A DNA stretch of 32,000 bases from Candidatus Peribacter riflensis. GTDB taxonomy: Bacteria; Patescibacteriota; Gracilibacteria; Peribacterales; Peribacteraceae. The stretch lies in assembly GCA_001430755.1 (NCBI GenBank), contig CP013062.1:1080001-1112000 (forward strand), read 5' to 3'. The notes beneath the pieces are model-generated. The model was not told the origin of the DNA. It was given only the letters and a program-made list of their open reading frames with translations, and did no database searches. Within the stretch, counting starts at the first letter, position 1, and every line of letters begins with the position of its first letter. Below are positions 8,345 to 29,798 of this stretch, piece by piece. The position numbers and the translations under genes are program-made.

Positions 8345-8353
8345 TGCTATAAT
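8345..8353 (+). promoter_or_regulatory. Extended -10 promoter TGCTATAAT, 20 nt upstream of the ATG at 8374
   Basis: TGnTATAAT match. Its spacing to the start codon is identical to the promoters at 17699 and 27489. Confidence 0.45.
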
Positions 8354-9021: not shown

Positions 9022-9780
9022 ATGTATGTTCCTGATTTGTCTTTAGCCATTCTTTTTGGGATTCTTGGTCTTGTGTTCGGGAGTTTCGGCACCGTGCTGA
9101 TCGCGCGTCTCCCGGCGGGGCAGCACATAGGCGGCCGGTCCCGCTGCCCCAGATGCAAGCACATGCTCGGGGTGGCTGAGCTCATCCCGCTCGTGAGCTA
9201 TTGCTTTCTCTCCGGGCGCTGTCGTCACTGTCGAAGATCCATTGGCGTGCTCTACCCGCTCATCGAGCTTGGGTCCGCACTTCTCTTCCTCCTTGCGCTG
9301 CTCCTCGTCAAAGAGGCGCTTTCTTCCCTCCTCCTCGCGCTTGCGCTCTGGTTGCTCCTGCTTATTGCCGTGATGGACGCGCGAACGCAGAGCATCCATG
9401 ACCTCCTCAATTTCTCTCTCATTGCGTTCGCCGTTGCCTATGCAGTGAGTGTGGGGAGCGTGCAGATTGCCGCCCCCCTTCTTCTCGGCGCGTTCTTTGG
9501 CGGGCAGTGGGTGCTCAGCCGGGGGCGGTGGGTGGGGAGCGGAGACATCCTCCTCGGTATCGGCGTCGGGTTTCTTCTGGGGGACTGGATGCGAGCCCTG
9601 CTCTGCCTCGGTCTGGCATACATCCTGGGGGCAATGGTGGCCTCGTACCTGCTTCTTCTCCATAAAGCCTCCCGCAAGAGCCACATTCCCTTCGGGCCGT
9701 TTCTGGCTGGAGCGGCCCTGCTCACGATCATGTTTGGAGATCGGATACTCGGCCTGCTTGTCCCAGGGTTCTTTCTCTAG
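9022..9780 (+). CDS. pilD: Prepilin peptidase (A24 family, PilD/ComC-like)
   Basis: CPRCKHMLGVAELIPLVSYCFLSGRCRHCRRSI (two CxxC pairs), a multi-TM body, and Asp motifs VMDARTQSI and GSGDILLG. Confidence 0.85.
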   Translation: MYVPDLSLAILFGILGLVFGSFGTVLIARLPAGQHIGGRSRCPRCKHMLGVAELIPLVSYCFLSGRCRHCRRSIGVLYPLIELGSALLFLLALLLVKEALSSLLLALALWLLLLIAVMDARTQSIHDLLNFSLIAFAVAYAVSVGSVQIAAPLLLGAFFGGQWVLSRGRWVGSGDILLGIGVGFLLGDWMRALLCLGLAYILGAMVASYLLLLHKASRKSHIPFGPFLAGAALLTIMFGDRILGLLVPGFFL

Positions 9781-11781: not shown

Positions 11782-12900
11782 TTACCGCCCGTCTTCTTTG
11801 GGCTCTTTCTCCTTTCTCTCTTCCCTCTCATGGTTCTCCTCTTCTCGAGAGGAAGAGGAGCGTATAGGGCTGGTGAAAAACATCTCGGATGACGATGCGG
11901 CGGAAGAGCGGGGCGGTGTTTCCTGTAGCAGGCGGAGGAGAGATCGTGCGGCATTCTCGCGCCGTTCTTTTCTTTCTCCCCCCGAGAGGATTTCGGATGT
12001 CTCTTCACTGGAGGAAGAAGCATGGCTGAATGCAGAAGAGGACGCGGCTGATGCCTCTTGCCGCTCCTCTTCATTTCGGGGAGGGGCGACTACCCTCCTC
12101 TCCTCTTTTTCTTCAAGTTTCTTTTCCATCCTCTCGCGATTCTGCTTTTCCTCTGCGCTGGAAGAGGAAGATGCGTCATCACGGTCGTTTTCATCGAGCT
12201 CATCGGCGGCGTCCTCCATGAGCGTTTTTAGTGTCTGGGGGATTCCAATGGCCGCCTGAACCTGCAGGAGCGATTTCTGATGTTGGGTGAGTTCCAGCAG
12301 GAGATCCCTGCGGATTGCCTTCCTCTCTTCAGCAGGAAGGCTGTGCAGATATTTCTGAAGGCTGACAGCGTTCTCTTCCATTTGAGAGCGGAGGGTCGCT
12401 CCCCGATCATCGGAATCCGATTCCTGGTCCAGGGTATTGGCCTCATCAAGCCTTCGTTCGATGGTCCGGATCGTCCACTGCGCACGTCTGGCGGAAGTGA
12501 TGGAAAGGCCGGAAATGACGGGTTCCGTAATATGCACCTTGATGGGATAGAGCAGGTCACCCGGCATCGAACCCTCTGCGGCGTACGCCATGCCTCCTCC
12601 GGCAAGCAAGACGATGCATGCAGAGACGAGCGTGGCGGCCAAAGGCCTGGAGAAGACAGAGAAGAGAGAGAGCCTCCGTTCCTCGAGGGGATTACTTCGC
12701 ATGAAGCTGAGGAGTTTCGCGCGGCCGATGGCCTTCTCATAATCGGTTAATCGGAGGGAGCCAGATGATGCCCGCAGCACATCAGAGGGCGCGAAACTCA
12801 TCGTATGTGCCGTGAGCGCGGCGCGCACCTGCGCGTGTTCCACGGGCGAGAGCGTGCAGGAGCGGGCGGCGGCCAGGAATGCGGTGACGCGCTTATCCAT
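11782..12900 (-). CDS. Putative membrane anti-sigma factor (DUF5667-like extracytoplasmic domain) with a highly charged low-complexity C-terminus
   Basis: Its start overlaps the sigma-factor stop by 8 nt (ATGGATAA). It has a short cytoplasmic N-terminus, the TM helix LAATLVSACIVLLAGGGMAYAA, then the PGDLLYPIKVHITEPV block that I associate with DUF5667. The last ~150 aa are E/R/S-rich. Confidence 0.5.
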   Translation of the reverse strand: MDKRVTAFLAAARSCTLSPVEHAQVRAALTAHTMSFAPSDVLRASSGSLRLTDYEKAIGRAKLLSFMRSNPLEERRLSLFSVFSRPLAATLVSACIVLLAGGGMAYAAEGSMPGDLLYPIKVHITEPVISGLSITSARRAQWTIRTIERRLDEANTLDQESDSDDRGATLRSQMEENAVSLQKYLHSLPAEERKAIRRDLLLELTQHQKSLLQVQAAIGIPQTLKTLMEDAADELDENDRDDASSSSSAEEKQNRERMEKKLEEKEERRVVAPPRNEEERQEASAASSSAFSHASSSSEETSEILSGGERKERRENAARSLLRLLQETPPRSSAASSSEMFFTSPIRSSSSREEENHEREERKEKEPKEDGR

Positions 12901-13393
12901 GAGGGCTTAAGAGGGACTGGAGCTTTTCGATGCCACGGTTCACGCGAACAGAAATCACATTGGGGGAGACATCAAGGAGCGCGGCGATCTCGCGCGGGGG
13001 GAGCCCATCAATAAAACGCAGAATGACGGCTGTCCGGTACGGCTCCTCGATGTTCTGAAATGCTTCAAGCACGAAACGCTCTTCGAATACCGCAGCGGGA
13101 CCTTTTTCGCGGCTGGGAGGGTTGAACCCCGTTTCCATCATCTCCTCCAGAGAGGAGGTGGGCCGGCGCTTTCTGCGACGGACCATATCAATGATGAGAT
13201 TGTTGGCGACACGGTAGAGGTAGGCGCGCATATTCCGGACGGTGATGCCGCCGACAATGGCCTCCCATGCGCGGATGAACGTATCCTGCATGAGGTCTTT
13301 GCCCTCTTCGCGGTCGCCGAGTCGCAGCGCGCAGTGGCGGAAAATCGCATCCGCGTAGCTGTCGTAGGCCTCCAGAAACTCCTGTTGGGTCAT
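12893..13393 (-). CDS. ECF-type RNA polymerase sigma factor (sigma-70 family)
   Basis: Region 2 GKDLMQDTFIRAWEAI...YLYRVANNLIIDMVRRR. Region 4 HTH PPREIAALLDVSPNVISVRVNRGIEKL. The track start at 13411 is a TTG, so I use the ATG at 13393 (MTQQEF). Confidence 0.85.
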   Translation of the reverse strand: MTQQEFLEAYDSYADAIFRHCALRLGDREEGKDLMQDTFIRAWEAIVGGITVRNMRAYLYRVANNLIIDMVRRRKRRPTSSLEEMMETGFNPPSREKGPAAVFEERFVLEAFQNIEEPYRTAVILRFIDGLPPREIAALLDVSPNVISVRVNRGIEKLQSLLSPHG

Positions 13394-13465
13394 CGAGAGG
13401 GTGGGTGACAAAGGGAAGACGCTCGCGAATGCCTATTCTTACACAGATCGACCCGAAAATAGCGA

Positions 13466-15413: not shown

Positions 15414-17531
15414 TCAGATGAACAGCGCCGCGAGTGCGAGTGTCAGGGTCGAGAAGAGCTTGATCAGCACGTGCAGGCTGGGGCCGGCGGTGTCTTTGAA
15501 AGGATCGCCGACCGTATCGCCCGTAACGGCAGCCTGGTGCGCGGGGCTCTTCTTGCCGCCGTAGGCACCCGACTCGATGAACTTCTTCGCGTTATCCCAT
15601 GCGCCGCCGGAGTTGTTGAGGTAGGCAGCAAGGATGACACCCGTGATGGTGCCGACCATCAGGAAACCGGCAACCGCTTCGGCGCGGAAGATGATGCCCA
15701 CTGCAATCGGGGCAACGATCGCGACGAGGCCGGGGAGCACCATCTCTTTGAGGGCGCCGCGAGTGGCGATATCCACTGCCGCAGCGTAATCCGGCTCCTC
15801 CGTTCCCTGCATGATGCCCGCATGCTCCCGGAATTGCTTGCGTACCTCTTCCACGATCACGCCTGCAGCGCGCCCCACAGCTCGGATGGTGAGGGAGGTG
15901 AAGAAGAAGACGATGACTGCACCGAGGAATGCCCCGATGAAGACGGGAACTTTGGCAAGGTCGACCACTGAGATGCGCGCCTCTTCCAGGAATGCCGAGA
16001 AGAGCAGGAAGGCGGCGAGTGCTGCGGAGCCGACGGCGTAGCCCTTCGTGAGGGCCTTGGTCGTGTTGCCGCACGCATCGAGCTCATCCGTGACGAGACG
16101 CAGCTCATCCGGGGCTTTGCTCATCTCCACAATGCCTCCGGCGTTGTCTGTAATGGGTCCGAACATATCCATCGCGAGCACGTAGCCCACCATCGTGAGC
16201 ATGCCCATGGTGGCGACGGCCGTGCCGTACAGGCCGCCCGAGGGGAGGCCCGTCTGCTCACCGAACCAGTAGGAGGCCAGAAGGGCGGCGCACACCGTCA
16301 GCACCGAGAGCCCCGTGGACTCCATGCCGATGGCCGTACCCGAGATGATGTTCGTCGCATGCCCGGTCGTGGAGGCCTTGGCAATCGCCTGTACCGGACG
16401 GTGATCCTTGCTCGTGTAGTAGTCCGTGATGTAAACGAAGGCCACACTCGTCAGGATGCCCACGACCCCGCAGAGAAAGAACCACGGAGCGGCGTTGGCG
16501 AGCTGGAAGAAGGCAACAAAAGAGCCCACGACGCTCCCGGAGGAGGCCGTAGAAAGCATGAGTGCGGAACAGCCGAAGAGTGCGATCGTCGTGAGGCCGG
16601 TCGTCACCCAGTAGCCGCGTACCATCGCCCCCATGGGGGTATCACCCTCTTTGGCGCGCACCGAGTACACGCCGAAGATCGTTGCGATGAGACCGAAGGC
16701 ACGGAGGATCAGAGGGAAGAGAATGCCCTTGAGCCCGAAGACCGGGTAGAGGGCGACTCCCAACACCATCGCGCCGATATTCTCGGCCGAGATGGATTCG
16801 AACAAGTCCGCCCCGCGGCCCGCGCAGTCGCCGACGTTGTCGCCGACGAGGTCCGCGATCACGGCGGGGTTACGGGGATCATCCTCCGGAATGCCGGCCT
16901 CAATCTTGCCCACGAGGTCCGCACCCACATCCGCCGCCTTGGTGTAGATTCCGCCGCCGAGTTGTGCGAAGAGCGCCACGAAGCTCGCTCCGAATCCGTA
17001 GCCGACGATGAGGGCGGGAATCTGCTCTGCAGGAACTCCCATACCGACGCGGTAGAACAAGTAGAGTCCGCTGATGCCGAGGAGTGAGAGTGCGGTGATG
17101 ACGAGTGCCGAGACCGTACCGCTCCGCAAGGCCATCTTGAGTGCGCTGTCGAGACCGGTGCGCGCGCTGGCGGCCACTTTCAGGTTCGCGCGTGTGGCGA
17201 CGACCATGCTCACCACGCCGGCTATTCCTGAGAGCAAACAACCGAGGAGGAACGAGATTCCTATCTCAAATCCGTGTGCCCAGCTGTTCTCTCCTCCCAC
17301 GAGGCCGTACACAATGATCATGAGCAGGCCGACCGTAATCGAGAGGAGCGTGATAGTGCGGTACTGGCGCCGGATGAAGGCGCGTGCCCCCACCGAGATC
17401 GCGCGTGCGACCTTTTCCATGGCGGGAGTGCCGGTGGGCGCAGCTTTCACGGCATTCCAGAACACAAGGCTGTAGGCAAGACCGCCGACGGCGATGACGG
17501 GGGCCAGAAGCTCGAGGAACAAGGAGTTCAT
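15414..17531 (-). CDS. hppA: Membrane-bound proton-translocating pyrophosphatase, K+-independent subtype
   Basis: 705 aa, about 16 TM helices. [18 protein letters not shown] has Lys in the GNTT(K/A) position, the published K+-independence determinant. Also [16 protein letters not shown] and [16 protein letters not shown]. Confidence 0.9.
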
Positions 17532-17675
17532 ACAGAGAGGGGAGAAAAGTGTACGAAAGCATCCCGCGCGGGGAACGAAGGCCTCGCCATCGCTCCGGGG
17601 ACGTCGCCAGAGAGCCTAGGGGTGGGGCTCCTATTCCGTCAACCGGGAGGCCCGGGAACCTGCCGTTCAGGAACT

Positions 17676-17704
17676 TTGCAGAAAGTGCCTTTCTGTGCTA
17701 TCAT
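17676..17704 (+). promoter_or_regulatory. Sigma-70-type promoter TTGCAG-N17-TATCAT (with TGc extended -10) for the response regulator
   Basis: -35 at 17676..17681, -10 at 17699..17704, 20 nt to the ATG at 17725. The segment is 25/32 identical to the histidine-kinase promoter/leader at 27486..27517. Confidence 0.5.
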
Positions 17705-17724
17705 ACATAGTCAGATACACAATT

Positions 17725-18183
17725 ATGCCCACACCCAAAAAACATGTTCCTGCGGGAGAACCGGGCCCGGAAAAGGCCGCTCCACCGGCAGCGGATACGG
17801 CCGCTCCCCCGGTGCAGAATTCGAACGGAAAACGCATCCTCATTGTGGAGGACGAGCGTCCGCTTGCGCATGCTCTGGAACTCAAATTCCACCATGAGGG
17901 CTTCGATACGCACATCTGTCTGGATGGCGAAGAGGCGCTCAAAGAGGCAACCGAAGGAACGTACAACGTCATTCTGCTCGATCTCATCATGCCGCGCATG
18001 GATGGCTTCACCTTTCTGCAGGAGATGAAGAGTCGCGGCGTGAAAACACCTACGGTCATTCTCAGCAACCTCGGACAAGACGAAGACCGTGCGCGCGCCC
18101 AGGAGCTGGGAGCGGTGGGGTACTACGTGAAATCCAATACGCCGATCATGGAGATCATCAAACAAGTGCAATCCCTTCTCTGA
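17725..18183 (+). CDS. Stand-alone receiver-domain response regulator (CheY-like, no output domain)
   Basis: ILIVEDE, phospho-acceptor context VILLDLIMPRMDG, VILSN, YYVKS. The track start at 17695 is a GTG, so I chose the ATG at 17725. The stop is 2 nt before the pilB start. Confidence 0.85.
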   Translation: MPTPKKHVPAGEPGPEKAAPPAADTAAPPVQNSNGKRILIVEDERPLAHALELKFHHEGFDTHICLDGEEALKEATEGTYNVILLDLIMPRMDGFTFLQEMKSRGVKTPTVILSNLGQDEDRARAQELGAVGYYVKSNTPIMEIIKQVQSLL

Positions 18184-18185
18184 CG

Positions 18186-20009
18186 ATGCCTCTTTCTGAC
18201 ACCGATCTCGGCCCCATCCTCGTCCAACAGAATTATCTTTCTGAGGAGGATCTGAAGCGCGTGACGGCGCTGGCCAAGGAGCGGAATCTCCCGCTTCTTT
18301 CGATTCTGTTCGAACAGGGGCTTCTCACACAGGATCTGTACGAGGGAGCCATAGCGGAACACTACAAACTTCCCTTCTTCGATCTACAGGCGCACCTGCC
18401 CTCGCCGGAAGTCATTGCGAAACTCCCCGAGGAAATTGCACAGGCCTACCACACCGTGGTGGCGGAATTCGCCACCGACCGCGCGACGATCGCGACATCG
18501 GAACCGGGACGGGAGAATCTGGAGGAGGTCATGCGGCTCAATCTGGGGCAGAAAGAACCGGTGGTGCCGCCCCAGGAAACCAAAGACAAATCAGGGGAGG
18601 GTGCAGAAGCACCTCAGCAGAAAAAGGTCGTGCAGCGCCTGCTCTCCATTGGAAAGAAAGAAGAGAAAGAGACCGCCCCACAACGGTTTGCCGGCACGAT
18701 CACCTTTGTCTACACCCCCCAGTCGGGCATCGACGCCGCATGCCAGCACTACCGCAAACCTCTCTCCACGCGTTTTCAGTCGATCATCCAGAACGAGAAA
18801 AAAGTCGCACCCGAAATTCTGGAAGAGATCATCAATGATGCCATTGAACTCAGAGCCTCGGACGTACACTTCGAGCCGCAGGAGAAAATCGTTGTCGTCC
18901 GTTTCCGCATCGATGGCGTGATGCACGAAGCGGGACGCATTCCCAAAGAGCATTACGAGGGCGTGGTGAACCGCATCAAGATTCAGGCGAATATGCGCAT
19001 CGACGAGCATTACGCGGCGCAAGACGGTGCCATTCGGTACTCCACTCCGCGCAATGCGTTGGATATCCGCGTCTCGATCGTTCCGCTCGTGGAGGGCGAA
19101 AAGGTGGTGATGCGTCTTCTCTCCTCCTACGTCCGATCCATCACCCTTCTCGATCTGGGTTTCTCGGTCAAAAATCAGGAGATTATCACCGATGCGGCCC
19201 ACAAGCCGTTCGGCATGTTGCTCACGACAGGGCCGACAGGATCGGGAAAGTCCACGACCCTCACGGCGCTCCTGAAGATGCGCAACACACCTGATGTGAA
19301 TATCTCCACCATCGAAGATCCGGTGGAGTACAAGATCCCCGGCGTGAACCACATTCAGGTGAATCCGAAAACCAATCTCACCTTTGCCTCCGGTCTGCGC
19401 GCACTCGTGCGCCAGGACCCGGATATCGTCCTCGTCGGAGAAATCCGTGACGGCGAAACGGCAGATATCTCGGTCAATGCCGCACTCACCGGTCACCTGG
19501 TGCTCTCCACCCTGCACAGTAACGATGCGGCTACGGCCATTCCGCGTCTGCTCGACATGGGCGTGGAGCCCTTCCTGCTCGCGTCCACGTTGGAGCTGGT
19601 GATTGGCCAGCGCCTCGTGCGTCGCGTGTGTCCGCGCTGCCGTCTGAGTGTGAGCGTGCCCATCGAAAAGGCACACACGCTTTTCCCCGGAGCGGACAAG
19701 ATGATTCCTGGGGGAAAGCCGCTCACTCTCTACCGTGGCAAGGGATGCGAAGCCTGCAGCTCTACGGGGTATCGCGGGCGTATCGGTATCTATGAGCTTC
19801 TGGTCATCACACCGAAGATCGAAGAACTCATTCTGCGCCGTGCCTCCAGCTCCGAGCTCAATGAAACCGCAGTGAAGGAGGGCATGCGTCTCATGTTCGA
19901 AGACGGTCTCGAGAAAGTGCTGGCCGGCGTGACGACGATTGAAGAACTGCTCCGCGTGGCGGCTCCGCCTGCCATTGTTCTCAACCCGTCGCATGGCCGA
20001 GACGAATAA
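18186..20009 (+). CDS. pilB: Type IV pilus / type II secretion assembly ATPase (PilB/GspE/ComGA family)
   Basis: N-terminal MshEN/GSPII-N-like domain, Walker A GPTGSGKSTT, Asp box DPDIVLVGEIRD, His box GHLVLSTLHSNDA, and a tetracysteine CPRC...CEAC. Confidence 0.9.
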   Translation: MPLSDTDLGPILVQQNYLSEEDLKRVTALAKERNLPLLSILFEQGLLTQDLYEGAIAEHYKLPFFDLQAHLPSPEVIAKLPEEIAQAYHTVVAEFATDRATIATSEPGRENLEEVMRLNLGQKEPVVPPQETKDKSGEGAEAPQQKKVVQRLLSIGKKEEKETAPQRFAGTITFVYTPQSGIDAACQHYRKPLSTRFQSIIQNEKKVAPEILEEIINDAIELRASDVHFEPQEKIVVVRFRIDGVMHEAGRIPKEHYEGVVNRIKIQANMRIDEHYAAQDGAIRYSTPRNALDIRVSIVPLVEGEKVVMRLLSSYVRSITLLDLGFSVKNQEIITDAAHKPFGMLLTTGPTGSGKSTTLTALLKMRNTPDVNISTIEDPVEYKIPGVNHIQVNPKTNLTFASGLRALVRQDPDIVLVGEIRDGETADISVNAALTGHLVLSTLHSNDAATAIPRLLDMGVEPFLLASTLELVIGQRLVRRVCPRCRLSVSVPIEKAHTLFPGADKMIPGGKPLTLYRGKGCEACSSTGYRGRIGIYELLVITPKIEELILRRASSSELNETAVKEGMRLMFEDGLEKVLAGVTTIEELLRVAAPPAIVLNPSHGRDE

Positions 20010-21198
20010 CACGCCTGCGGCCCAGCCCGTCACGCCCCCTCCAGCCACTGCGCCGGAGGCTGCTTTGCCTGAGATCACCCCAAAACAGCAGCCGTCGCGC
20101 TATGCCGCGCAGCGACAGGAGTTCCGCAAGTTTCTCTCCTCGCTGCAGCACCTGGGCATGGGCAAGCAGCGGATGGTGTTCATTCAGAGTATGTCGCTGA
20201 TGCTCACGGCCGGCCTTTCGCTGGTGGATGCCTTGAAAACACAACTTCTTGAAACCAGATCCAAGGCAGTGCGCACGCTCATTCAAAATATCATCACCGC
20301 AGTCGAATCGGGCTCGCCCCTGTGGAAGGCGATGGATGACCAGTCGTTGTTCTCCCCCTACGAAATCGCGCTCGTCCACATCGGCGAGGAGGGAGGCAAC
20401 TTGGCGCGCAATATGCAGTACCTCTCGGAGCAACAGGAGAAAGACCATGCTCTCAAACAGAAGGTGAAGATGGCGATGATCTATCCGTCGATCGTCGTGG
20501 TCCTTGTCTTCATTCTCATCATGGGGTTGGGACTCTTCGTGCTGCCGAATCTCGTGCAGGTGCTCTACTCGCTGCGGGTGGAGCTTCCGCTCGCCACGCG
20601 TGTCGTGATCGCGTTTTCGCAATTCTTTGAGGCGCACGGCGTGCTCGTAACGCCGCTGCTCATCTTTGCGCTCATTAACCTTTTCCTTCTCGGCAAATAC
20701 ACGCGGCTGCGTGTGGCTTCCCAGTGGCTGGTCTTTCATACCCCCGGCATCGGCAGTCTGGCGCGCGAAGCCACCATTGCGCAGTTCGGCGTGATCATGG
20801 GCGGGCTTCTGCGCGCAGGTGTTCCGTTGGTGGAGGCCCTGCATTCACTGGTGGAGGTGACGAACATTGTCGTCTATCACAACTTCTACGAGCGCCTGCT
20901 CGAACATGTGAATGCCGGCGATTCATTCAGCAAGAGCTTTGCCGCCCTGCCCGAGAGCAGCCATCTCCTCCCTATTTCGGTGCAGCAGCTCATCGTGACC
21001 GGCGAACGATCGGGGGCATTGGCCGAGGTGCTCATGAAGATCGCAGACATGTACGACAAGAAAGCCTCTGAGACGGCAGAGAGACTTCCGGTGATCCTGG
21101 AGCCACTTCTGCTCATTATCATCGGCGGCATCGTCGCAGGCATCGCATTTGCTATCATAGTCCCTATCTACAAAGTCGTCGGGAACATCGGTAACTGA
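19993..21198 (+). CDS. pilC: Type IV pilus platform protein (PilC/GspF/ComGB family)
   Basis: Two GspF-type repeats (SPYEIALVHIGEEGGNL and LPISVQQLIVTGERSGAL) and three TM segments. The track start at 19939 is a TTG. The ATG at 19993 (MAETNNT) overlaps the pilB end by 17 nt. Confidence 0.85.
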   Translation: MAETNNTPAAQPVTPPPATAPEAALPEITPKQQPSRYAAQRQEFRKFLSSLQHLGMGKQRMVFIQSMSLMLTAGLSLVDALKTQLLETRSKAVRTLIQNIITAVESGSPLWKAMDDQSLFSPYEIALVHIGEEGGNLARNMQYLSEQQEKDHALKQKVKMAMIYPSIVVVLVFILIMGLGLFVLPNLVQVLYSLRVELPLATRVVIAFSQFFEAHGVLVTPLLIFALINLFLLGKYTRLRVASQWLVFHTPGIGSLAREATIAQFGVIMGGLLRAGVPLVEALHSLVEVTNIVVYHNFYERLLEHVNAGDSFSKSFAALPESSHLLPISVQQLIVTGERSGALAEVLMKIADMYDKKASETAERLPVILEPLLLIIIGGIVAGIAFAIIVPIYKVVGNIGN

Positions 21199-21226
21199 TG
21201 TTTTCCCATTCCTTCCCCCCTTCCTC

Positions 21227-24106
21227 ATGTCGCACCGCGGGTTCACTGCAGTCGAAGTACTGCTCACGCTCGGCATCGTCGCAGTCACAGCCGGTATCAG
21301 CATGCCGCTCTATCGCACCTACCAACTCCGCAGCGAGTTGGATACTGCCATCGAGCAGGCCAAGCACGCCCTCGAGCGCGCCCAAGTGCTGGCACGGGCA
21401 GGGCAGAACGACTCTATGTGGGGCTATGCCACACAGGAGGGCATTCTCTTTCAGGGAGAGGCCTTCGCGATCCGCGAGCCCCAGTCGGATGAGGCGTACA
21501 TTGTGCCGGCCTCCGTAGAGGTCTTGGGCCTGACGGAGGTGGTCTTTCAGCGTGTAACCGGTGAGCCGTTAGTCGGCGGGGAGATCATCTTTCAGGCAGA
21601 CAACGGGGAATGGCGCACCATTACAGTGACAGAGGGGGGGTCGGTGGCTTCGAGTGAATTGTTTCCGCCAGAGAGCAGCTCGAGTAGCACCGTGGCCAGT
21701 GTGGGTGGGAGCAGTACATCTTCCGATATCAGCAGTACCGGCAGCGTTGGTTCGGGCGGCAGCAGTGCGGGCATGTCCGGAGGGTCCGAAGGCAGCACTG
21801 CCTCCGGAGGAGAGACGGGAGGGGGAGATACAGAGAGCTCCAGCAGCGCCGCAACCTGTGATGATGCGTTCACGCTCCTGCCCGATGGCACCATTGAGAC
21901 AACAGGGACGGTGGATGCCACCGTGAAAGTTCTCGGCTCGCAGGTGAGCGAAGGGGCGGGCGGCCCTGCCGCCAGGATCGTTGTATCGATGAGTACGGAT
22001 GAGGGTGATACGTGGGTTCCGCTCTTCGACGGACAAACCGTCCGTGGCGGAGAGGAAGATGTCGTCCAGAATCTCCCTTCGGGTACCAAGCTTCTCATCC
22101 GGGTCAACGGCCGGCACTCCTGGCTCTTCAACCGGACGTTCCTTTCTAATAATTCCGCGGGGCACATGCTGGCCCTGCGCAACGGGCACCGGCTTCCTGT
22201 CGGTTCCTATGACGCCTTCGGCAATCCTGCCGGACTCGCCTCTTTCCTTCGCGCGATCATTGAGGATGGCCGTATCAAGATCCATCCAAAATCCGTCGTC
22301 TTCCTCACAGAGCTCGATGCCCTCTGGAAAGGCGCCTCCAAGTTCCAGGATGCCGTCGTGCAGGTGACCTTTGCCGCAAAGCCCGGCAGCTGCGCGCAGG
22401 CCACCGATCCAAAAGTGAAGATCGTCTTCGACCGGCTCGAGAATCAGAACGCAGGCGATGTCCGTCCCCGGGTATACGTGGGCGAGCAGGGTATCCTCTT
22501 CGCGGAGGATCAGTGGATTCCCCTGTCGGTGGCGGGCGTGACGATGGCCGATTCCTCCCTTGTCGAGAATGTCCCCGGCATGGCTGTAGAACGCCGCAGC
22601 GGAGTATTGCGCGTGCTCCTGCATGGATCGCACATCATTCCATCCGGCAAGGAGCTCGTGGATGCACGCATCATCTTCGATCGTGCCGTCGTGACTTCCA
22701 TCGAGAATGACATGGGGGCCGATACCACCGAAAATCCCACCGACGGCGTCGTGAACGACGGCACGGGCGGGGATGAGGTGACCATTGCGGATGACCGCGG
22801 CTCGGTACGGTTCCAGACGCGCGTCACCAGCGCGGATGATGCCATCTTCATTCACTGGGCAATCGGCATGGCCAGTTCCAGCTCCAGTGCCGCTTCGGGG
22901 GCCAGTTCCGCAGCGTCGAGTCAGGCCTCTTCCGGATCTGCGCAGTCAGCGAGCAGTGAAGGGCAGACCGGCAGTGAGGGCGAAACCGGCAGCGAAGCGA
23001 GTGTCGCACCCGATGCCTGTGCCGCCGCATACACGATGGATGATCGGGGGCGCATGGTGCTCGGCGAGAAGGCCGATGTCTCGTTCACCGTTCTTGGATC
23101 CTATGCCACGTACGGTGCCAACGGTCCGATGATTCACGTGCGCCTGAATGCGAGTCTGGACGGAGGTGGCACGTGGCGCGGGCTCTTCAATTTCCGCGAT
23201 ATCATCACGGGCGACACGCAGACCATACGGGATGTTCCTTCGGGATCCGTACTCACCCTCTCGGCTGAGGGGCGTTACTCCTGGCTCTTCAAGCGTGTCG
23301 CGCGCATCGAAGATGACGGAGACCGCGTGCGCGTGCTCCGGCCCGGCTCGGTGGTCCCCGGCATCGGCTTGCTCTTGAACCCCATGCGCCTGAAGCCTTT
23401 CCTGCGGGAGCGCATTTCCGAAGGCAGAGTGCTCCTCACCGGCCGGCAGGTGCTGGCGCTTGTGGAGCTGCAGACACTGGATGACACGGCAGATTATCAG
23501 GATGCCGTGGTGCTGGTCACGATTGCGAAGCCGGTGAGCAGCGGCGGACCCTGTGCACAGGAAGATGCTGCGCTCAGCAGTCAGTCGAGCGTTCCTGCGG
23601 GAACGAGCAGTACTTCTTCCACTTCCTCGGTGGCAGGCCCGAGAATCACGATCTGTCACTTCACCAGCGCAGACCGGCTGCATCCAGCCACAATGGAAAT
23701 CAATGAATCTGCCTGGTCTGCGCACAGCGCGATCGGCGATCGTCTGGGTGCCTGTGAAGCCGACGAGGACGGTGACGGCATTCCGAATGCACAAGACTTC
23801 TGCTCCGGCACGTACCTGCCCGAGTCCGTACCGACCGAGTTCATGCTCTTCAACCGGTATGCCCTCACGGGGTCGAGCGGCGTGTTCCGCGAGGGGCCGC
23901 GCAAGAGGGTGAGTTCCTTCTCCCTCTCCGATACCCGCGGTTGCAGCTGCGAACAGCTTGTGGCGGTGGCCGAGGGCGAGCGGGATTACTACTTCCCGCA
24001 CGAGCCTCTGCTCCATCGGGAGCTCAAGAGCCTCTTCCCGTTCTATACGAACGGCGCACGGCAATTCGGTTGCGGGGCGGCGATCCTGCGCATGTCGCGG
24101 CCGTAA
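21227..24106 (+). CDS. Giant (959 aa) modular type IV pilin-like protein: prepilin N-terminus, three Ser/Gly linkers, two paralogous 181-aa Cys-bounded domains, Cys-rich C-terminal domain
   Basis: Class III signal MSHRG/FTAVEVLLTLGIVAV (Gly-1, Phe+1, Glu+5). The internal repeats are at 21857..22399 and 23018..23560. The C-terminal domain contains DEDGDGIPNAQD (TSP3-like Ca2+ motif) and ITICH...GDRLGAC. Confidence 0.75.
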   Translation: MSHRGFTAVEVLLTLGIVAVTAGISMPLYRTYQLRSELDTAIEQAKHALERAQVLARAGQNDSMWGYATQEGILFQGEAFAIREPQSDEAYIVPASVEVLGLTEVVFQRVTGEPLVGGEIIFQADNGEWRTITVTEGGSVASSELFPPESSSSSTVASVGGSSTSSDISSTGSVGSGGSSAGMSGGSEGSTASGGETGGGDTESSSSAATCDDAFTLLPDGTIETTGTVDATVKVLGSQVSEGAGGPAARIVVSMSTDEGDTWVPLFDGQTVRGGEEDVVQNLPSGTKLLIRVNGRHSWLFNRTFLSNNSAGHMLALRNGHRLPVGSYDAFGNPAGLASFLRAIIEDGRIKIHPKSVVFLTELDALWKGASKFQDAVVQVTFAAKPGSCAQATDPKVKIVFDRLENQNAGDVRPRVYVGEQGILFAEDQWIPLSVAGVTMADSSLVENVPGMAVERRSGVLRVLLHGSHIIPSGKELVDARIIFDRAVVTSIENDMGADTTENPTDGVVNDGTGGDEVTIADDRGSVRFQTRVTSADDAIFIHWAIGMASSSSSAASGASSAASSQASSGSAQSASSEGQTGSEGETGSEASVAPDACAAAYTMDDRGRMVLGEKADVSFTVLGSYATYGANGPMIHVRLNASLDGGGTWRGLFNFRDIITGDTQTIRDVPSGSVLTLSAEGRYSWLFKRVARIEDDGDRVRVLRPGSVVPGIGLLLNPMRLKPFLRERISEGRVLLTGRQVLALVELQTLDDTADYQDAVVLVTIAKPVSSGGPCAQEDAALSSQSSVPAGTSSTSSTSSVAGPRITICHFTSADRLHPATMEINESAWSAHSAIGDRLGACEADEDGDGIPNAQDFCSGTYLPESVPTEFMLFNRYALTGSSGVFREGPRKRVSSFSLSDTRGCSCEQLVAVAEGERDYYFPHEPLLHRELKSLFPFYTNGARQFGCGAAILRMSRP
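21857..22399 (+). repeat. Copy A of the intragenic 181-aa domain duplication (protein level) inside the giant pilin
   Basis: CDDAFT...KPGSCAQ. Aligned to copy B with no gaps over the first 114 positions, I count about 36 identities, including VLGS, GP, TW, LF, PSG, GR.SWLF.R. The end shares QDAVV.VT.AKP and CAQ. Confidence 0.8.
23018..23560 (+). repeat. Copy B of the intragenic 181-aa domain duplication
   Basis: CAAAYT...SSGGPCAQ. It has the same length as copy A and the same Cys...CAQ boundaries. Confidence 0.8.
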
Positions 24107-24132
24107 GTGTTATTCGTCACTTAAGAAAAGCG

Positions 24133-25725
24133 GTGTCACCCCGAGCACAGTCGAAGGGCGGCACCGCGTTTCTAGAGTTCGTTCCCCGGCGGAGTGTATC
24201 CCGAGCGAGTCGAAGGGCTCGGAATGACAAGCTCTCTGCGCTCCTTCAAAGAGCCTTCCCTGTATACTGCAGAACTGTTCCCTTCTCCTCCCGTCCGCGA
24301 TCCGGCTCGCTGCTGCTCGAAGCCCTGCTGGGCGTAGCCATCTTTGCGATTCTCGCGGGGGCGGTGAGCACGGTACTCTTCGTGGGGCAGGAAGGTGCAC
24401 TCAAGAGCGGAGACAGGATACGTGCGGTCTTTCTCGCTTCCGAGGCGCTGGCTGCCGCTCGCACAATGCGGGATGCCTCTTTCGATCAGCTCGTGGATGG
24501 GAAGCATGGGGTCTGTATCGGAGCAGCCGGAACATGGGAATTCTGCGGCCAGGAGAATGTGGCTGCAGATGGTTTCCGTACGACGCTCACTGTGCAGACG
24601 CTTGCCGAGAGTCACGTGCGCCTCTCTGCAGAGACGCGTTGGCAGGGGGGTGCCATAGGTTCCGGATCGGTTCTGATTGCCGAAGAGCTGACAGACTGGC
24701 GTGTGGTGAAGCCGATTGGCGACTGGGCGACCGTGCACGAGGAGGGCGGTTTCACCATCGAGGGCCAGCCGCTCTTCTCCGCGATCGCGCTCAACGATGG
24801 TGCCGCTTTCGTCGCCAGTGCGTACGGAGAGGGCGGTAAGGGGCTGCATGTCTTCTCGTACGCGGAGGGCGGCGATCCCCTGCCCATTGCGGCCGGATTC
24901 GATTTGGGTGTTGCCGCTTACGCGGTGCTGGTGGATGGGGATGTGCTGTATGTTGCGACCGCAGACACTTCTGCAGAAGTGCAGATCTTCGATGTGTCCG
25001 CACCGGCGGAATTCTCTATGACCAAGCGGCTCGCGACGATCAATGTGCCCGGAGACGGACGAGCACGGTCTCTCGCGTTCTTCAATAACACACTCTTCGT
25101 GGGTGCGACCGAGGACATTATAGAAGCCGAACTCTACGCATTCGATGTGGCGGATGCGGGGGATCCGGCTCTTCTGGATATTCTGGATGACACCGCCTCG
25201 TACTTCGGGCTTAGCCTGCACGAAGGGTTCGCCTATGTTGCGAGCTCTATGGATTCCATGGAACTGCGGGTCATCGACGTCTTCGATCCCGCCGATCTCT
25301 CCGTTGCAGTTGGCGAGGGGTACAACCTCACGGATGTGCAGGATGGGCTCGCCATGGCGACCGTCAACAGCGACGTGCTCATCGGCAGGCGCAGTGGAGA
25401 GGCCATTGAGGAACTCGTGCTTCTCGATGTGAGCAGTGGAGCGGTTCCTTCCCCGCCACCCGGTCCGTGGTATCAGGAAATGGGCGGGAGCGTTCCCGCT
25501 CTCACCGTGGAGCCGGGAGGACGCTACGCGTTCATCGCCACCGATAACATCGCCGCGCAATTGCAGGTGGCGGACCTGCAGGCCTTTCGTGCGGGTCAGT
25601 TCCCCATCATCTCCTCCGCGCTCACCTCGACCGGCGGAGGGCGGGCAGTCGCCTACGATGCACAGCGTGACCGCGTGCTCCTCGCCACGGATCGCGGAAT
25701 TCTCCTCTACCGTCCCGGTACATGA
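24133..25725 (+). CDS. Pseudopilin fused to an LVIVD-like beta-propeller repeat domain; start codon uncertain
   Basis: Prepilin-type segment RSG/SLLLEALLGVAIFAILAGAV (Glu+5) at 24295..24360. Four or more repeats of the type LYVA...EVQIFDVSAP, LFVG...ELYAFDVADAGDP, AYVA...ELRVIDVFDP, ELVLLDVSSG. The only in-frame ATG/GTG/TTG between the upstream stop and the cleavage motif is GTG 24133. Confidence 0.6.
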   Translation: MSPRAQSKGGTAFLEFVPRRSVSRASRRARNDKLSALLQRAFPVYCRTVPFSSRPRSGSLLLEALLGVAIFAILAGAVSTVLFVGQEGALKSGDRIRAVFLASEALAAARTMRDASFDQLVDGKHGVCIGAAGTWEFCGQENVAADGFRTTLTVQTLAESHVRLSAETRWQGGAIGSGSVLIAEELTDWRVVKPIGDWATVHEEGGFTIEGQPLFSAIALNDGAAFVASAYGEGGKGLHVFSYAEGGDPLPIAAGFDLGVAAYAVLVDGDVLYVATADTSAEVQIFDVSAPAEFSMTKRLATINVPGDGRARSLAFFNNTLFVGATEDIIEAELYAFDVADAGDPALLDILDDTASYFGLSLHEGFAYVASSMDSMELRVIDVFDPADLSVAVGEGYNLTDVQDGLAMATVNSDVLIGRRSGEAIEELVLLDVSSGAVPSPPPGPWYQEMGGSVPALTVEPGGRYAFIATDNIAAQLQVADLQAFRAGQFPIISSALTSTGGGRAVAYDAQRDRVLLATDRGILLYRPGT

Positions 25726-26144
25726 TGCAATTGCGCTCCCGATCCGGCTACGTTTTCCTCTTGAGCATTATCATGGTGGGTGCCATCGCTGTGGCGACAC
25801 TGGGATCCCTGCTCATGATCGGCGTCGGTTCCCTGCAGATCGGCGGAACCGTGCAGCAGTCGGAACAGGCGCGCTCGCTCGCTCAGACCTGTGCGGAACG
25901 CGCACTCCGGTCTTTGTGGGAAGATGGCGCCTATATCGGCTCCGAGGAATTCACCTTTGCAGAGGGGACCTGCGCGATCTGGCGCGTGGGGGGGTCGGGG
26001 AATGAGAATCGTTCCCTCTGTACTGAGGGCAATGTGGGGTCGACCGTACGGCGTTACGAGATCCTGCTCCAGCGTGTCCTCCCCTCCATTCAGGTCTATG
26101 CCTGGCGCGAGGTGGAGCAATTCACTGCCTGTGCTTTCGAATGA
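25722..26144 (+). CDS. PilX/ComGG-like minor pseudopilin (no Glu+5)
   Basis: MMQLRSRSG/YVFLLSIIMVGAIAVATLGSLL. 140 aa, four Cys. ATGA overlaps on both sides couple it to the neighbouring genes. Confidence 0.55.
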   Translation: MMQLRSRSGYVFLLSIIMVGAIAVATLGSLLMIGVGSLQIGGTVQQSEQARSLAQTCAERALRSLWEDGAYIGSEEFTFAEGTCAIWRVGGSGNENRSLCTEGNVGSTVRRYEILLQRVLPSIQVYAWREVEQFTACAFE

Positions 26145-26788
26145 TGCATTTCTCCCCTCAGCGCCGGCCGGGTACCACGCTCGTGGAGCTTCTGCTCTTC
26201 CTCGCCTTTTTCGCCGTGGTGGGGGGGACTGTTGTTTCCATTCTCTTCGCAACGAGCGACCAGCGTGCGCGCCAGCAGACCATCGTATCTGTGGAGCGTA
26301 CGGGACTCCAGATTCTCCAGAGCCTGCGTTGGCGCATCGAGCATGCCGAGCGCATTTTCGATCCCGCGAACGGGGCGACTGGGGCGATCCTCGCGCTGCA
26401 AATGGCATCAGAATCGGACCATCCTCTCATTGTGGGCCTCGAGGACGGTGCCTTGGTTCTGGTGCTGCGCGATACCAAGAAGACACTCACGACGGAGGGC
26501 ATGACTATTACACATTTCACGGTCCGCAATACCTCCCCCGCCAGCACACATCCGAGCGTTTTGATCTCATTCGACCTCACTCAGTCGTATCCGCTCCCTT
26601 CTGCTGCCGTTCCCGAGTACACCCGGAATTTCGAGATGCTCGTCTCGCTCCTTCCCAAAGACCACACAGTGGGTGACGACTGCGGCTGTGCAGCGCCATC
26701 ATGCCAGGGGGCCATCTATCAGTGGGAGATCTGTTCCGGGACCAGCTGTTCCGCAGCGCCGATCACTCTGCCGTGTCCTGCGCTGTAG
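26141..26788 (+). CDS. Minor pseudopilin with a Cys-rich C-terminus
   Basis: MMHFSPQRRPG/TTLVELLLFLAFFAVVGG (Gly-1, Glu+5). The last 40 aa contain 7 Cys (GDDCGCAAPSCQGAIYQWEICSGTSCSAAPITLPCPAL). Confidence 0.7.
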   Translation: MMHFSPQRRPGTTLVELLLFLAFFAVVGGTVVSILFATSDQRARQQTIVSVERTGLQILQSLRWRIEHAERIFDPANGATGAILALQMASESDHPLIVGLEDGALVLVLRDTKKTLTTEGMTITHFTVRNTSPASTHPSVLISFDLTQSYPLPSAAVPEYTRNFEMLVSLLPKDHTVGDDCGCAAPSCQGAIYQWEICSGTSCSAAPITLPCPAL

Positions 26789-26919
26789 CGATTGCAGACT
26801 CTTTTTTTTGACCGTCAATGCAATCGTCTCGTGCGGAGAGAAAAATTGTTACACTGTTGCGGAGCATTCAGAGTGGAGTGCTCCTCCTCTTCTTTTCTAT
26901 CTCTTCCCCATTTTCTTCT

Positions 26920-27366
26920 ATGAAACTTCGCCTCTCCCGAGCAGGGTTCACGCTCATTGAGCTCCTCCTCGTCATTGGGATCATCGCGATCCTCGCTTCC
27001 ATCGTCATCGTGGCCATCAACCCCACCAAGCAGATGGGTGATGCACGCAACGCACAGCGCCGCAGCGATGTGAACACCGTTCTGAACGCGGTTTATCAGT
27101 ACGCCATTGATAACAACGGCACCATGCCGGGCTGTCTGGCATCGGGTACCGGAGGAAATATCTGCGTGAAGGGCTCTTCCTGCACGGGTGTGACAGGTGG
27201 CTGCGACCTCGATTCACTCACCACGTCGTACATCGTGGATCTGCCCACAGATCCTTCTGGCGCAACGGGCAATGACACGAACTATGATGTTGCCATCACC
27301 AGCGGACGCGTAACGGTCTCGGCTCCCGAAGCCGAGCAGAGTCAGACCATCAGCGTGACACGCTAA
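26920..27366 (+). CDS. Type IV major pilin candidate (148 aa)
   Basis: MKLRLSRAG/FTLIELLLVIGIIAILASIVIVAINP is a textbook prepilin leader and N-methylation/cleavage motif. The globular part has 3 Cys. A strong terminator follows. The track start at 26818 adds 34 implausible residues. Confidence 0.85.
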   Translation: MKLRLSRAGFTLIELLLVIGIIAILASIVIVAINPTKQMGDARNAQRRSDVNTVLNAVYQYAIDNNGTMPGCLASGTGGNICVKGSSCTGVTGGCDLDSLTTSYIVDLPTDPSGATGNDTNYDVAITSGRVTVSAPEAEQSQTISVTR

Positions 27367-27390
27367 GGAGGAAGTCAGACTGTCCACTCG

Positions 27391-27434
27391 ACCCCGCATC
27401 TACTCTTTCAGGAAAGGGTGCGGGGTTTTCGTTT
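27391..27434 (+). terminator. Rho-independent terminator after the pilin gene
   Basis: accccgca (27391..27398) pairs with tgcggggt (27419..27426), followed by TTTTCGTTT. Confidence 0.7.
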
Positions 27435-27465
27435 GGAATGCGATAATTTGCGGGTGAATCGACCA

Positions 27466-27494
27466 TTGTGAGTATTATATAAATATGGTATAAT
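27466..27494 (+). promoter_or_regulatory. Sigma-70-type promoter TTGTGA-N17-TATAAT (TGg extended -10) for the histidine kinase
   Basis: -35 at 27466..27471, -10 at 27489..27494, 20 nt to the ATG at 27515. It sits in an AT-rich island and is homologous to 17694..17727. Confidence 0.55.
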
Positions 27495-27514
27495 CACTAT
27501 TCAGATACACAACT

Positions 27515-29089
27515 ATGCAGGCTCCCCTTGCTCCGCCCCGGCCGGACCCTCCGCGCACATCTGCACGTGGTGAAACGCAGCGGCGCACAGGATTCGGCAT
27601 GTCCATCTTCTGGCGCACCATGCGCCAGTTCGCGCTCCTTGCCACCTTCTCGGTCGTGCTCTTCTCGGGTGCGACGGCAATCGCCGCACGGCCGCTGCCG
27701 GCATTCCTGGGCTCGCTCTTTCTCCTGCTCGGAGTGCTGGTCTTCACGCTCGCGGTGGCGCTGGCGTACTTTCTCGCACGCGGGCTGACAGGCCCCATCG
27801 TCTCGCTCAGCCGCCGCGTGGCGCGCCTGGGGCCGGATCACTGGTCCTATCAGCCTGCAGAGAACACCACCGACGAAGTCGGCACGCTCGAAGCCGTGGT
27901 GGCGGATATGGCGCATCGTCTGGAGCGAGGCTATCTCTATCTGCAGGGTGAGGTGGAGAAGCGTACGGCGGAGCTCAAAGAGCAGTACCTCAAAGACCGG
28001 ACGATCCTCTCATCCATCCACCACGGAGTGATCGTCACCGATCCTCAGGGAAGGGTGATCGATGCCAATCCCGCAGCCGTGCAGATGATGGGGCAGAGTC
28101 GGCTCGAAGAAATCCACGGGCGTTCTGTTGTTGAGGTTCTTCGTCTCTCTCATCACCACCAGTTCCTCCCAGAGCAGGAACACCCTGTGATGCACTGTCT
28201 GAAGTCCCGCACCGAAGTCCGCCCGCACCCGCAGGAGCAGAGCAGCCTGGAGCGCCCCGATCACTCGCGCATTCCGGTCATGCTCATCGCCAGCCCCCTC
28301 CTCTCTGAAGATCAACTGCTCGGGGTGGTCGTGGTGTTCCACGACGTGACCGAGGAACGCAAACTGGACTACATGAAGTCCGAATTCATCTCTCTGGCTT
28401 CCCACCAGCTCCGTACACCCCTCTCGACGATCTCATGGTACGTGGAGCTTTTGCAGACGGATGACCGTGACAAGCTTACCGAGACGCAGAAGGCCTATGT
28501 GGACGAAATGCACGTCGCCGGCCAGCGTATGGCGCGCCTGATCGATGCCCTGTTGCATGTGTCCAGGCTGGAGGGCGGCGGGATCACGCCAATGAAGCAG
28601 AATGTCGATCTCGTCGCGTTGATCCGGGATGTAGCTGAAGACGAACGAGCGCTCGCGAAGGATCGCAAAATCAGCATGGAGCTTCGGCTGCCGTCCGGTC
28701 TGACCCTGGTCACGGATCCCACGCTGGTGCAGATCATTCTGCACAACATCATCAGCAACGCGGTGAAGTACTCCGAGGCGGGGGACTCCATCGGCATTTC
28801 CCTCTCGCAGACCGAGGAGACCGTGGCGGTCACGGTGCAGGATACGGGTGTGGGCATCCCTGAGAAGGAGCAGCGCTACCTCTTCACGCGTCTCTTCCGG
28901 GCTTCCAATGCGACGAAGGTGGATACGACGGGCAGCGGGCTCGGCCTCTACATTTCCCGCATGCTCGCAGAGCAGCTCAAAGGCAGAATTTCGTTCCTCA
29001 GTACCGAGGGGAAGGGAACGTCATTCATGCTGGAGCTGCCGTTGGAGAATCCAAAGAAGCCGGATGCCCCCTCGGCCGAGGGTTCCTGA
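27515..29089 (+). CDS. Membrane sensor histidine kinase (2 TM, HAMP-like, PAS, HisKA, HATPase_c)
   Basis: H-box SEFISLASHQLRTPLSTI, N-box IILHNIISNAVKYS, G1 VQDTGVGIPEKE, G2 GSGLGLYISR. PAS segment ILSSIHHGVIVTDPQGRVIDANPAA. Confidence 0.85.
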   Translation: MQAPLAPPRPDPPRTSARGETQRRTGFGMSIFWRTMRQFALLATFSVVLFSGATAIAARPLPAFLGSLFLLLGVLVFTLAVALAYFLARGLTGPIVSLSRRVARLGPDHWSYQPAENTTDEVGTLEAVVADMAHRLERGYLYLQGEVEKRTAELKEQYLKDRTILSSIHHGVIVTDPQGRVIDANPAAVQMMGQSRLEEIHGRSVVEVLRLSHHHQFLPEQEHPVMHCLKSRTEVRPHPQEQSSLERPDHSRIPVMLIASPLLSEDQLLGVVVVFHDVTEERKLDYMKSEFISLASHQLRTPLSTISWYVELLQTDDRDKLTETQKAYVDEMHVAGQRMARLIDALLHVSRLEGGGITPMKQNVDLVALIRDVAEDERALAKDRKISMELRLPSGLTLVTDPTLVQIILHNIISNAVKYSEAGDSIGISLSQTEETVAVTVQDTGVGIPEKEQRYLFTRLFRASNATKVDTTGSGLGLYISRMLAEQLKGRISFLSTEGKGTSFMLELPLENPKKPDAPSAEGS

Positions 29090-29112
29090 GGCACGGTCAT
29101 GAGCCCGGGGAG

Positions 29113-29555
29113 GACTTCCCCAAGGCTCATGATGATAGTTGGTCCCGCTCTTCTGTACGCCGGGTTCTGTTCCCCGCGTTATGGAACGCGGGGCGATGAT
29201 CATCTCTCTGGGACCCCGGTTACCCGGTGGCCTCGACCGCGGCCCGCAGATGCGGGACGGGTACTGTGCGGAGGAGTCGTCGGTACAGCGGAACCACTGC
29301 GTGATCCAGCGACCCAAACCCTCCTTGCTCCACCTAGAGTTTGCCAACCCCGTTTGCACGGGGCCTCGGTGCTCCGAGGCGTTTCACCCCCTTGCGGGAT
29401 CGTCTCTGTGGCACTGGTCCGTGCCCGCCTTTACCGAATATATGACGGGCAGGTGGGCGTTACCCACTAGGCGTTCCAATGGAGCCCGGACGTTCCTCTC
29501 AGGCTCCGCCCCTTACGGGGCTTCGCCGGAGCGATCATCCAAAGAGCAGGAAGTC
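29113..29555 (-). ncRNA. rnpB: RNase P RNA, bacterial type A
   Basis: The minus strand reads ...GAGAGGAACGTCCGGGCTCCATTGGAACGCCTAGTGGGTAACGCC... (compare E. coli GAGGAAAGTCCGGGCTCCATAGGGCAGGGTGCCAGGTAACGCC). It also has GGGTGAAACG, GCAAACTCTAGGTGGAGCAAGG and GAACAGAACCCGGCGTAC (compare ACAGAACCCGGCTTA). The ends pair as GGATGATCGCTC/GAGCG..ATCATC and GACTTCC/GGAAGTC. Boundaries are good to about +/-15 nt. Confidence 0.85.
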
Positions 29556-29723
29556 TTATTCTCGTCTTTGATTGCCTTTGAGACAAGGACTCCGTAGGAT
29601 TTTCTTTGTCTGATCTTTTTATAATATTTGTGGCGAAGGCGGGCTTTGCCCGCCTGGAGCCACTCCACTTAGGGAAAAGAGAGTTCATGAGAGAAAAACC
29701 GTAGGTTTGTCTCTCATGCCTAG

Positions 29724-29798
29724 GCCGCTTTAGCTCAGTGGTAGAGCAACTCACTTGTAATGAGTAGGTCCGGGGTTCAAATCCCCGAAGCGGCTCCA
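29724..29798 (+). tRNA. tRNA-Thr (anticodon UGU), CCA encoded
   Basis: Cloverleaf by hand: acceptor GCCGCTT/AAGCGGC, D arm GCTC-AGTGGTA-GAGC, anticodon arm ACTCA-CTTGTAA-TGAGT, T arm CGGGG-TTCAAAT-CCCCG, discriminator T, then CCA. Confidence 0.9.

Follow-up and report, generated by a model that had tools for sequence, protein, structure and literature searches.

The window, the whole 32,000-nucleotide stretch of DNA that was analyzed (G000:C1:1080001-1112000), comes from Candidatus Peribacter riflensis, a tiny groundwater bacterium that is as yet uncultured, and from a genome (here G000) that consists of a single contig of 1,248,026 bp with a GC content of 58.5%; the other G-numbers used below (G001, G006, G007, and G022) denote related genomes that were compared with it. 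Five complete genomes of this species have been described (1,248,071 +/- 217 bp, 58.5% GC) in a text that mentions type IV pilus genes and from which promoters and two-component genes are absent (PMC4736985). In the window, the gene for a receiver-only response regulator is followed after 2 nt by the gene for the PilB ATPase, one of a series of type IV pilus genes that also encode the PilC platform protein, a 959-aa pilin-like protein, an LVIVD pilin-like protein, two small proteins, and, as the last of the series, the major pilin (Table 1). The operon is closed by a terminator hairpin that a simple terminator scan missed because of its long loop; the hairpin is conserved in the alignment of relatives, with a compensatory change in G007 (CCCTGCA/TGCAGGG). 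The histidine kinase gene that comes next is monocistronic, given that the RNase P RNA, on the minus strand, and a tRNA-Thr gene lie beyond it. The RNase P RNA (class A, 147 bits) occupies positions 29140-29550 of the minus strand, directly after the kinase gene, and tRNA-Thr(TGT) positions 29724-29798 of the plus strand; the promoter of the RNase P RNA may be formed by a minus-strand TATTAT box (about 29621-29626) that precedes TCAGACAAAG.

Table 1. Features of the regulator-pilus-kinase locus and of the 16S rRNA tail (window positions unless a contig is named)
Feature	Position	Strand	Description
-35-like hexamer, regulator/pilus-operon promoter	17675..17681	+	TTTGCA with 18-nt spacer, or TTGCAG with 17-nt spacer
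Extended -10, regulator	17696..17704	+	TGC TATCAT; consensus scan, conserved in orthologs
12-mer, copy 1, TCAGATACACAA	17711..17722	+	Nearly the whole predicted leader of 12-14 nt
Receiver-only response regulator, 152 aa	17725..18183	+	37-aa Pro/Ala-rich N-terminal extension; OmpR/PhoB-like receiver without output domain
Type IV pilus genes behind the regulator	18186..27366	+	From ORF table and domains
Terminator hairpin CCCCGCA ... TGCGGGG with T run	27392..27429	+	Closes the pilus operon
-35-like hexamer, kinase promoter	27466..27471	+	TTGTGA, 17-nt spacer
Extended -10, kinase	27486..27494	+	TGG TATAAT; AAATATGGTATAATC invariant across the genus
12-mer, copy 2, TCAGATACACAA	27501..27512	+	Register as in copy 1
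Histidine kinase, WalK/PhoR-like	27515..29089	+	HAMP-PAS-HisKA-HATPase; monocistronic
16S rRNA 3' end, tail GGAUGGAACACUUCCUUA	G000:C1:1021378-1021402 (locus L069)		CUUCC versus CCUCC anti-Shine-Dalgarno core

Judging by their domains and linkage, the regulator and the kinase are likely partners of one signaling system. The receiver is nearest to those of the OmpR/PhoB family, minus their output domain, and the acidic and Lys residues of its pocket are visible in the sequence; the kinase carries the HisKA and HATPase domains expected of a cognate partner. The order regulator, pilus operon, kinase, spanning about 10 kb overall, is found in about 20 genera of the family. The statement in the original prediction that the regulator lacks a DNA-binding domain is correct, the protein being receiver-only.

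A consensus scan found one sigma-70-like site per locus, TTTGCA-N18-TATCAT (equally, TTGCAG-N17) before the regulator gene and TTGTGA-N17-TATAAT before the kinase gene. Both sites are extended -10 promoters of sigma-70 type, with a TGn motif, a TAnnnT -10, and a -35-like hexamer at 16-18 nt. The two extended -10 elements, TGC-TATCAT and TGG-TATAAT, had been predicted as such, as had a -35 at exactly 17 nt; the latter is true of the kinase promoter and is one of two equal readings at the regulator promoter. Direct reading also bears out that positions 17696-17727 and 27486-27517 are identical at 25 of 32 nucleotides, which a repeat search extends to 26 of 33, that both contain the perfect 12-mer TCAGATACACAA, and that exactly 20 nt separate the -10 from the ATG at both genes. 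The 12-mer was said to end 4 nt before each ATG; it in fact ends 2 nt before it, its last base lying 3 nt upstream of the A, with TT as the intervening dinucleotide at the regulator and CT at the kinase. Both copies begin at the 7th nucleotide after the -10. The spacer of the regulator promoter further contains a perfect 7-bp inverted repeat (CAGAAAG/CTTTCTG, 3 nt between the arms, positions 17679-17695); it was rejected as a palindromic operator, as the repeat is weaker in congeners (5-6 of 7) and absent at the kinase promoter.

In the 1.25-Mb genome the 12-mer occurs twice and has no further copies even when one mismatch is allowed, so it is not a word common across the genome. The repeat alone is not significant, because uniqueness in 1.25 Mb is expected of any 12-mer and because seven other exact 12-13-mer pairs occur by chance within positions 17400-29200. 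Its significance lies in the register that the two copies share with respect to both the -10 and the ATG. Leader pairs were compared among 83-107 candidate regions of G000 (approximately 3400-5700 pairs). Across 107 promoter-leader regions the longest common word is 12 nt, with the regulator/kinase pair ranking first; across 83 regions this pair again ranks first, with an in-register identity of 15/17 against a mean of 4.8 (standard deviation, 1.9) and a next best of 13. Chance resemblance of two short A/C-rich leaders could be argued from the frequency of exact 12-13-mer pairs in this stretch and from the mutual identity of 12-13/17 that generic CA-rich leaders reach. However, the copies have the same register to the -10 and the ATG, the top-ranking pair belongs to two signaling partners, the motif is conserved at both loci in relatives, and its derived changes are parallel (see below), all of which make a chance match very improbable. 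Searches for the exact 12-mer in other families returned matches at chance level only.

Several properties of these promoters are habits of the genome. Distances from a -10-like box to the first ATG peak at 6-10 nt genome-wide, which indicates that leaderless genes are common and places the transcription start at the 7th to 9th nucleotide after the -10. A typical promoter of G000 has a T-rich spacer, TGC or TGG, and TAnAAT, followed either by an ATG after 6-10 nt (leaderless) or, often, by N4-AGATTT and a short CA-rich or C/U-rich leader; among the 5-mers of short leaders, ACACA is the most frequent. Upstream of starts, words that could pair with the 16S rRNA tail are depleted, not enriched. 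The tail itself reads ...ACACUUCCUUA, with CUUCC replacing CCUCC, as in 10 of the 13 family genomes in which the tail is assembled; the other 3 keep CCUCC. Ribosomal protein bS21 is often missing in Peregrinibacteria (PMC9297842). Given this genome-wide occurrence, the pair is not set apart by its extended -10, its A/C-rich leader, or its lack of a Shine-Dalgarno site, and insofar as the original prediction drew on the extended -10, the missing site, and the short leader, it is not supported.

Neither leader has a Shine-Dalgarno tract 5-10 nt before the start codon, as had been noted. With 20 nt between the -10 and the ATG, both genes also fall outside the 6-10 nt that marks leaderless genes. 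Folding is weaker at both 5' ends than in shuffled sequence (z of +1.1 and +1.25), and leader and ATG are unpaired in the centroid structure of each. The best run of pairing between the leaders and 16S rRNA, 8 nt with G-U pairs included, is within the range of shuffled leaders. The promoter at position 8348 (TATAAT) has, as predicted, the 20-nt spacing without the 12-mer; it lies upstream of an unannotated 202-aa protein, after which comes a prepilin peptidase (9022-9780).

The regulator is present in 8 of 8 congeners, in seven of which the kinase is assembled. In the orthologs of the genus both promoters are conserved from the -35 through the ATG, including CTTTGCAG at the -35 of the regulator promoter in all nine, and in the congeners both carry AAGACA(C) from the 8th nucleotide after the -10; motif conservation in relatives, on which the original prediction could be checked, is thus borne out for this core. 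Where G000 has TCAGATACA, its relatives have TAAGACACA, and the ancestral counterpart of TCAGATACACAA is TAAGACACACAC. In the kinase promoter, free variation at the five bases that separate the -10 from the motif, alongside retention of TAAGACA, indicates selection on the motif itself. The 20-nt spacing is held by 8 of 9 regulator promoters (the ninth has 21 nt) and 6 of 8 kinase promoters (the other two have 23 nt), and five lineages outside the genus also have it in their regulator promoters. Close likeness of the two leaders is less constant: the regulator leaders of G006 and G001 have diverged from the corresponding kinase leaders, with an identity of 3-4/14, so that matched leaders are not indispensable.

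Similar leaders are also found farther afield. A count by eye gives 16 of 18 identical positions for the regulator and kinase leaders of G022, the sister genus; this near-identity was rejected as a private variant because the sequence equals the class consensus. Across the family, regulator and kinase leaders resemble each other more within genomes than between them (8.3 versus 6.8 of 16; permutation P of 0.0006, or 0.005 without G000), an excess to which we give little weight because it is confounded by a clade-specific generic promoter style. Kinase leaders in many genera follow the pattern GAAA-(A/T)ACACA-YC-ATG, though the kinase proteins are only 35-50% identical (loci L070-L090, L104, and L111), and regulator leaders outside the G000 clade are of a GGATTT-plus-pyrimidine type. 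Metagenome contigs hold closer orthologs of the regulator.

The motif is not confined to the signaling genes. AAGACA from the 8th nucleotide after a strong -10 occurs at four orthologous promoter groups, which account for nearly all matches when a strict -10 is demanded; with a loose -10, the motif is no more frequent than control patterns. The third group lies before the gene for a 456-aa fn3 surface protein whose tail is LPXTG-like, a gene situated in G000 just left of the window, and the fourth before that for a 145-aa membrane protein, with a STAND-type NTPase next in line; at both, most or all of the congeners searched have AAGACA in the orthologous promoter. The motif is thus fixed in position at several promoters and conserved in their orthologs, and its presence at two unrelated genes means that the ancestral likeness of the regulator and kinase leaders reflects a small promoter/leader class. 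No common function is evident among the four class genes, two of which have no link to pili. The fn3 gene of G000 (G000:C1:1078120-1079530, minus strand; locus L174) encodes a 456-aa secreted protein with a weak fn3 match and a C-terminus, LSQTG followed by a hydrophobic stretch and a basic tail, that resembles a sortase signal. In its promoter a TATAAT box is directly followed by TCAGAAAGACAA, which matches the 12-mer at 10 of 12 positions, and AAGACA stands in the class register; should a regulon exist, this gene may be its third member. The G000 copy of the 145-aa gene is at position 398487; a 559-aa gene at 255553 was rejected as the ortholog of the fourth group, which precedes the 145-aa membrane protein. 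A further site at genome position 55326 (TATCAT-N6-TCAGA) was dismissed as chance, as it lies within a long opposite-strand ORF and its own ORF is junk-like.

Against this conserved background, the leaders of G000 have a form of their own. Over the 14 nt before the ATG, its regulator and kinase leaders are identical at 13 positions, and each differs from its own orthologs at 4-6 of the 14; this private matched form is seen only in G000 among the genomes compared. From outgroup states, the ancestral bases of both sites are A at position 2 and C at position 6, and identical derived changes are found at both sites: A to C at position 2, C to T at position 6, and C to A at position 12. At positions 11 and 14, the kinase leader has in addition gained the bases that characterize the regulator leader. 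Other class members in G000 have not changed in the same way: AAGACAA is still in register at the fn3 promoter, and at the 145-aa gene AAGATCC is placed one base earlier. We infer that independent drift is a very unlikely source of this pattern, which implies either that a short tract was copied between the sites or that both were selected toward one sequence. The concerted change is a single event in one lineage.

If a tract was copied, the likeness could be historical and without a function of its own, arising by common descent within the class and then by transfer of 12-17 nt from the regulator leader to the kinase leader in G000, through gene conversion or template switching. This would account for the presence in the kinase leader both of bases derived in the regulator leader and of ancestral bases otherwise found in regulator leaders only (positions 11 and 14), and it agrees with the flanks, which on both sides retain their own orthologous character. 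Such a tract is, however, far below the usual length of a recombination substrate, the sites are 9.8 kb apart with little flanking homology, and the other seven genomes show no homogenization. Purifying selection on the motif and on the 20-nt spacing is also evident. We consider a purely historical likeness unlikely.

The original prediction attributed the shared leader to a common DNA- or RNA-binding factor. A dedicated trans-acting factor, binding DNA at the start site or acting at the 5' end of the transcript as an RNA-binding protein or small RNA, would coregulate the kinase and the regulator/pilus operon and might also act on the fn3 gene; the substitutions in G000 would then reflect coevolution of the sites with their reader. 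Conservation of the motif next to variable discriminator bases, its exact register at four promoter groups, and the same three derived substitutions at both G000 sites are all consistent with such a factor. So is the fn3 promoter of G000, which matches the 12-mer at 10 of 12 positions compared with 7 of 12 in its orthologs, although this convergence carries an ascertainment bias because the site was chosen for its resemblance to the motif. On the other side, G006 and G001 have no shared leader, the element shows neither dyad nor repeat symmetry, and no candidate reader is found nearby: the regulator is without an output domain, and the ORF that follows the kinase gene (123 aa, 29099-29470) was rejected as a DNA-binding partner because it is antisense to the RNase P RNA and its translation is junk-like. 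No intergenic antisense partner with a match of at least 10/12 was found, and Rfam has no match for the element; its matches in the window are the RNase P RNA and the tRNA only. The shared cis motif thus stands, and the search of the nearby ORF, antisense partners, and Rfam yielded no reader for it. We regard a dedicated factor as possible, if less than likely. Doubtful, too, is its most specific form, a small Peribacter regulon read at the transcript 5' end or start site by a putative protein or RNA and comprising the pilus operon with the receiver-only regulator, the kinase, the LPXTG-like fn3 protein, and the small membrane protein, in which the sites at the riflensis signaling genes would have changed together with the reader.

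The explanation we favor, with a probability of about 0.5, is that the 12-mer forms the start region and almost the whole 5' leader of two transcription units and serves to match their expression. The units are those of one pilus signaling locus, the regulator with pilB, pilC, and the pilins in one and the kinase alone in the other. Housekeeping-type RNA polymerase would recognize their extended -10 promoters and start 7-9 nt downstream, at the first bases of the 12-mer; because the 12-mer begins at the modal start position, it would comprise the start region and nearly the whole leader. The resulting mRNAs would have an unstructured A/C-rich leader of 12-14 nt without a Shine-Dalgarno site, and their translation would follow the Shine-Dalgarno-independent route that is probably used for nearly all genes of the organism. 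In this view, the most economical one, the element would be the expression signal of both units. The element itself is a member of the small conserved Peribacter class with AAGACA(C) from the 8th nucleotide after the -10. In the riflensis lineage, its two copies were made alike, which would give both units a common start context, leader length, and 5' end, and it is on this ground that we propose that their expression is matched. Both units would respond to any factor that reads the start region or the 5' end; a dedicated reader is possible, but the data do not demand one. Against this explanation stand the occurrence of the concerted change as one event in one lineage, the diverged leaders of G006 and G001, the lack of an evident common function among the four class genes, and the control-level frequency of the motif with a loose -10; nor was a reader found.

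Coregulation of the regulator/pilus unit and the kinase, as originally predicted from the shared leader, is plausible in this setting. It is favored by the likely membership of both proteins in one signaling system, by the conserved element in the start region, and by the concerted change in G000, and it is weakened by the occurrence of the core at two unrelated genes and by the loss of likeness in G006 and G001. The feature is a form, specific to this lineage, of a small conserved class of promoters and leaders; the genome around it has many leaderless genes and is devoid of Shine-Dalgarno sites.

The arrangement overlaps partially with those of several known systems. Two-component loci may have one cis motif shared by the signaling genes and their target operon, as with the Pho boxes at phoBR and pst or the control of pilA by PilS-PilR. 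As at those loci, a promoter-proximal motif is common here to the kinase, the regulator, and the controlled structure, and it would coordinate their expression. It differs from them in that the regulator has no DNA-binding output and that no reader was found. The motif, moreover, is located at the start site and in the 5' leader, not farther upstream, it accompanies promoters of the housekeeping extended -10 type, and its core is also present at two unrelated genes. Conserved sequence in the core promoter is likewise familiar from elements of the start site and initial transcribed region, such as the discriminator and the start-site context. The position at a fixed distance after the -10 (the 8th nucleotide), behind variable bases, is in keeping with such elements, whereas the restriction of the sequence to four promoter groups is not, the commoner context in G000 being N4-AGATTT.

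Initiation independent of a Shine-Dalgarno site, on leaderless mRNAs or short unstructured leaders, is known from Actinobacteria and Deinococcus-Thermus, and related cases are the Shine-Dalgarno-blind initiation of the Bacteroidia type and CA-rich enhancers. The missing Shine-Dalgarno site, the weakly folded A/C-rich leader, and the abundance of leaderless genes place the present genome close to these. In contrast to leaderless systems, both mRNAs are predicted to have a leader, with a -10-to-ATG spacing of 20 nt fixed across genera and a specific sequence at the 5' end. Gene conversion is also known to drive the concerted evolution of dispersed repeats, for example in duplicated tuf genes and rRNA operons. 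There, as here, copies within a genome are closer to each other than to their orthologs, but the tract in G000 is only 12-17 nt long, is noncoding, and lacks long flanking homology.

Bacteria of the candidate phyla radiation have not yet been grown alone, and their type IV pili are probably used for attachment to other cells. To our knowledge, nothing is known of gene regulation in these organisms. An element in exact register at the starts of the pilus operon and the kinase gene offers a testable handle on the expression of pilus signaling, and it bears on how short leaders without Shine-Dalgarno sites work in these bacteria. The matched substitutions in one lineage are also a small, clean case of concerted evolution at two regulatory sites. 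On present evidence, the finding is a modest lead and not a new mechanism.

Two further features of the window deserve mention. Besides the genes discussed above, it encodes RNase J (3627-5633) and an ECF sigma factor (12893-13411), both on the minus strand. The intergenic region between the H+-pyrophosphatase and regulator genes (17532-17675) contains the conserved blocks GAGCCTAGG and TTCGTCAAC (orthologous loci L051-L058) and, near the start of the pyrophosphatase gene, the conserved block GGGGAGAAAAGTGTACGAAAGCATCCTTCT; the blocks of this region presumably belong to the divergent promoter and leader of the pyrophosphatase.
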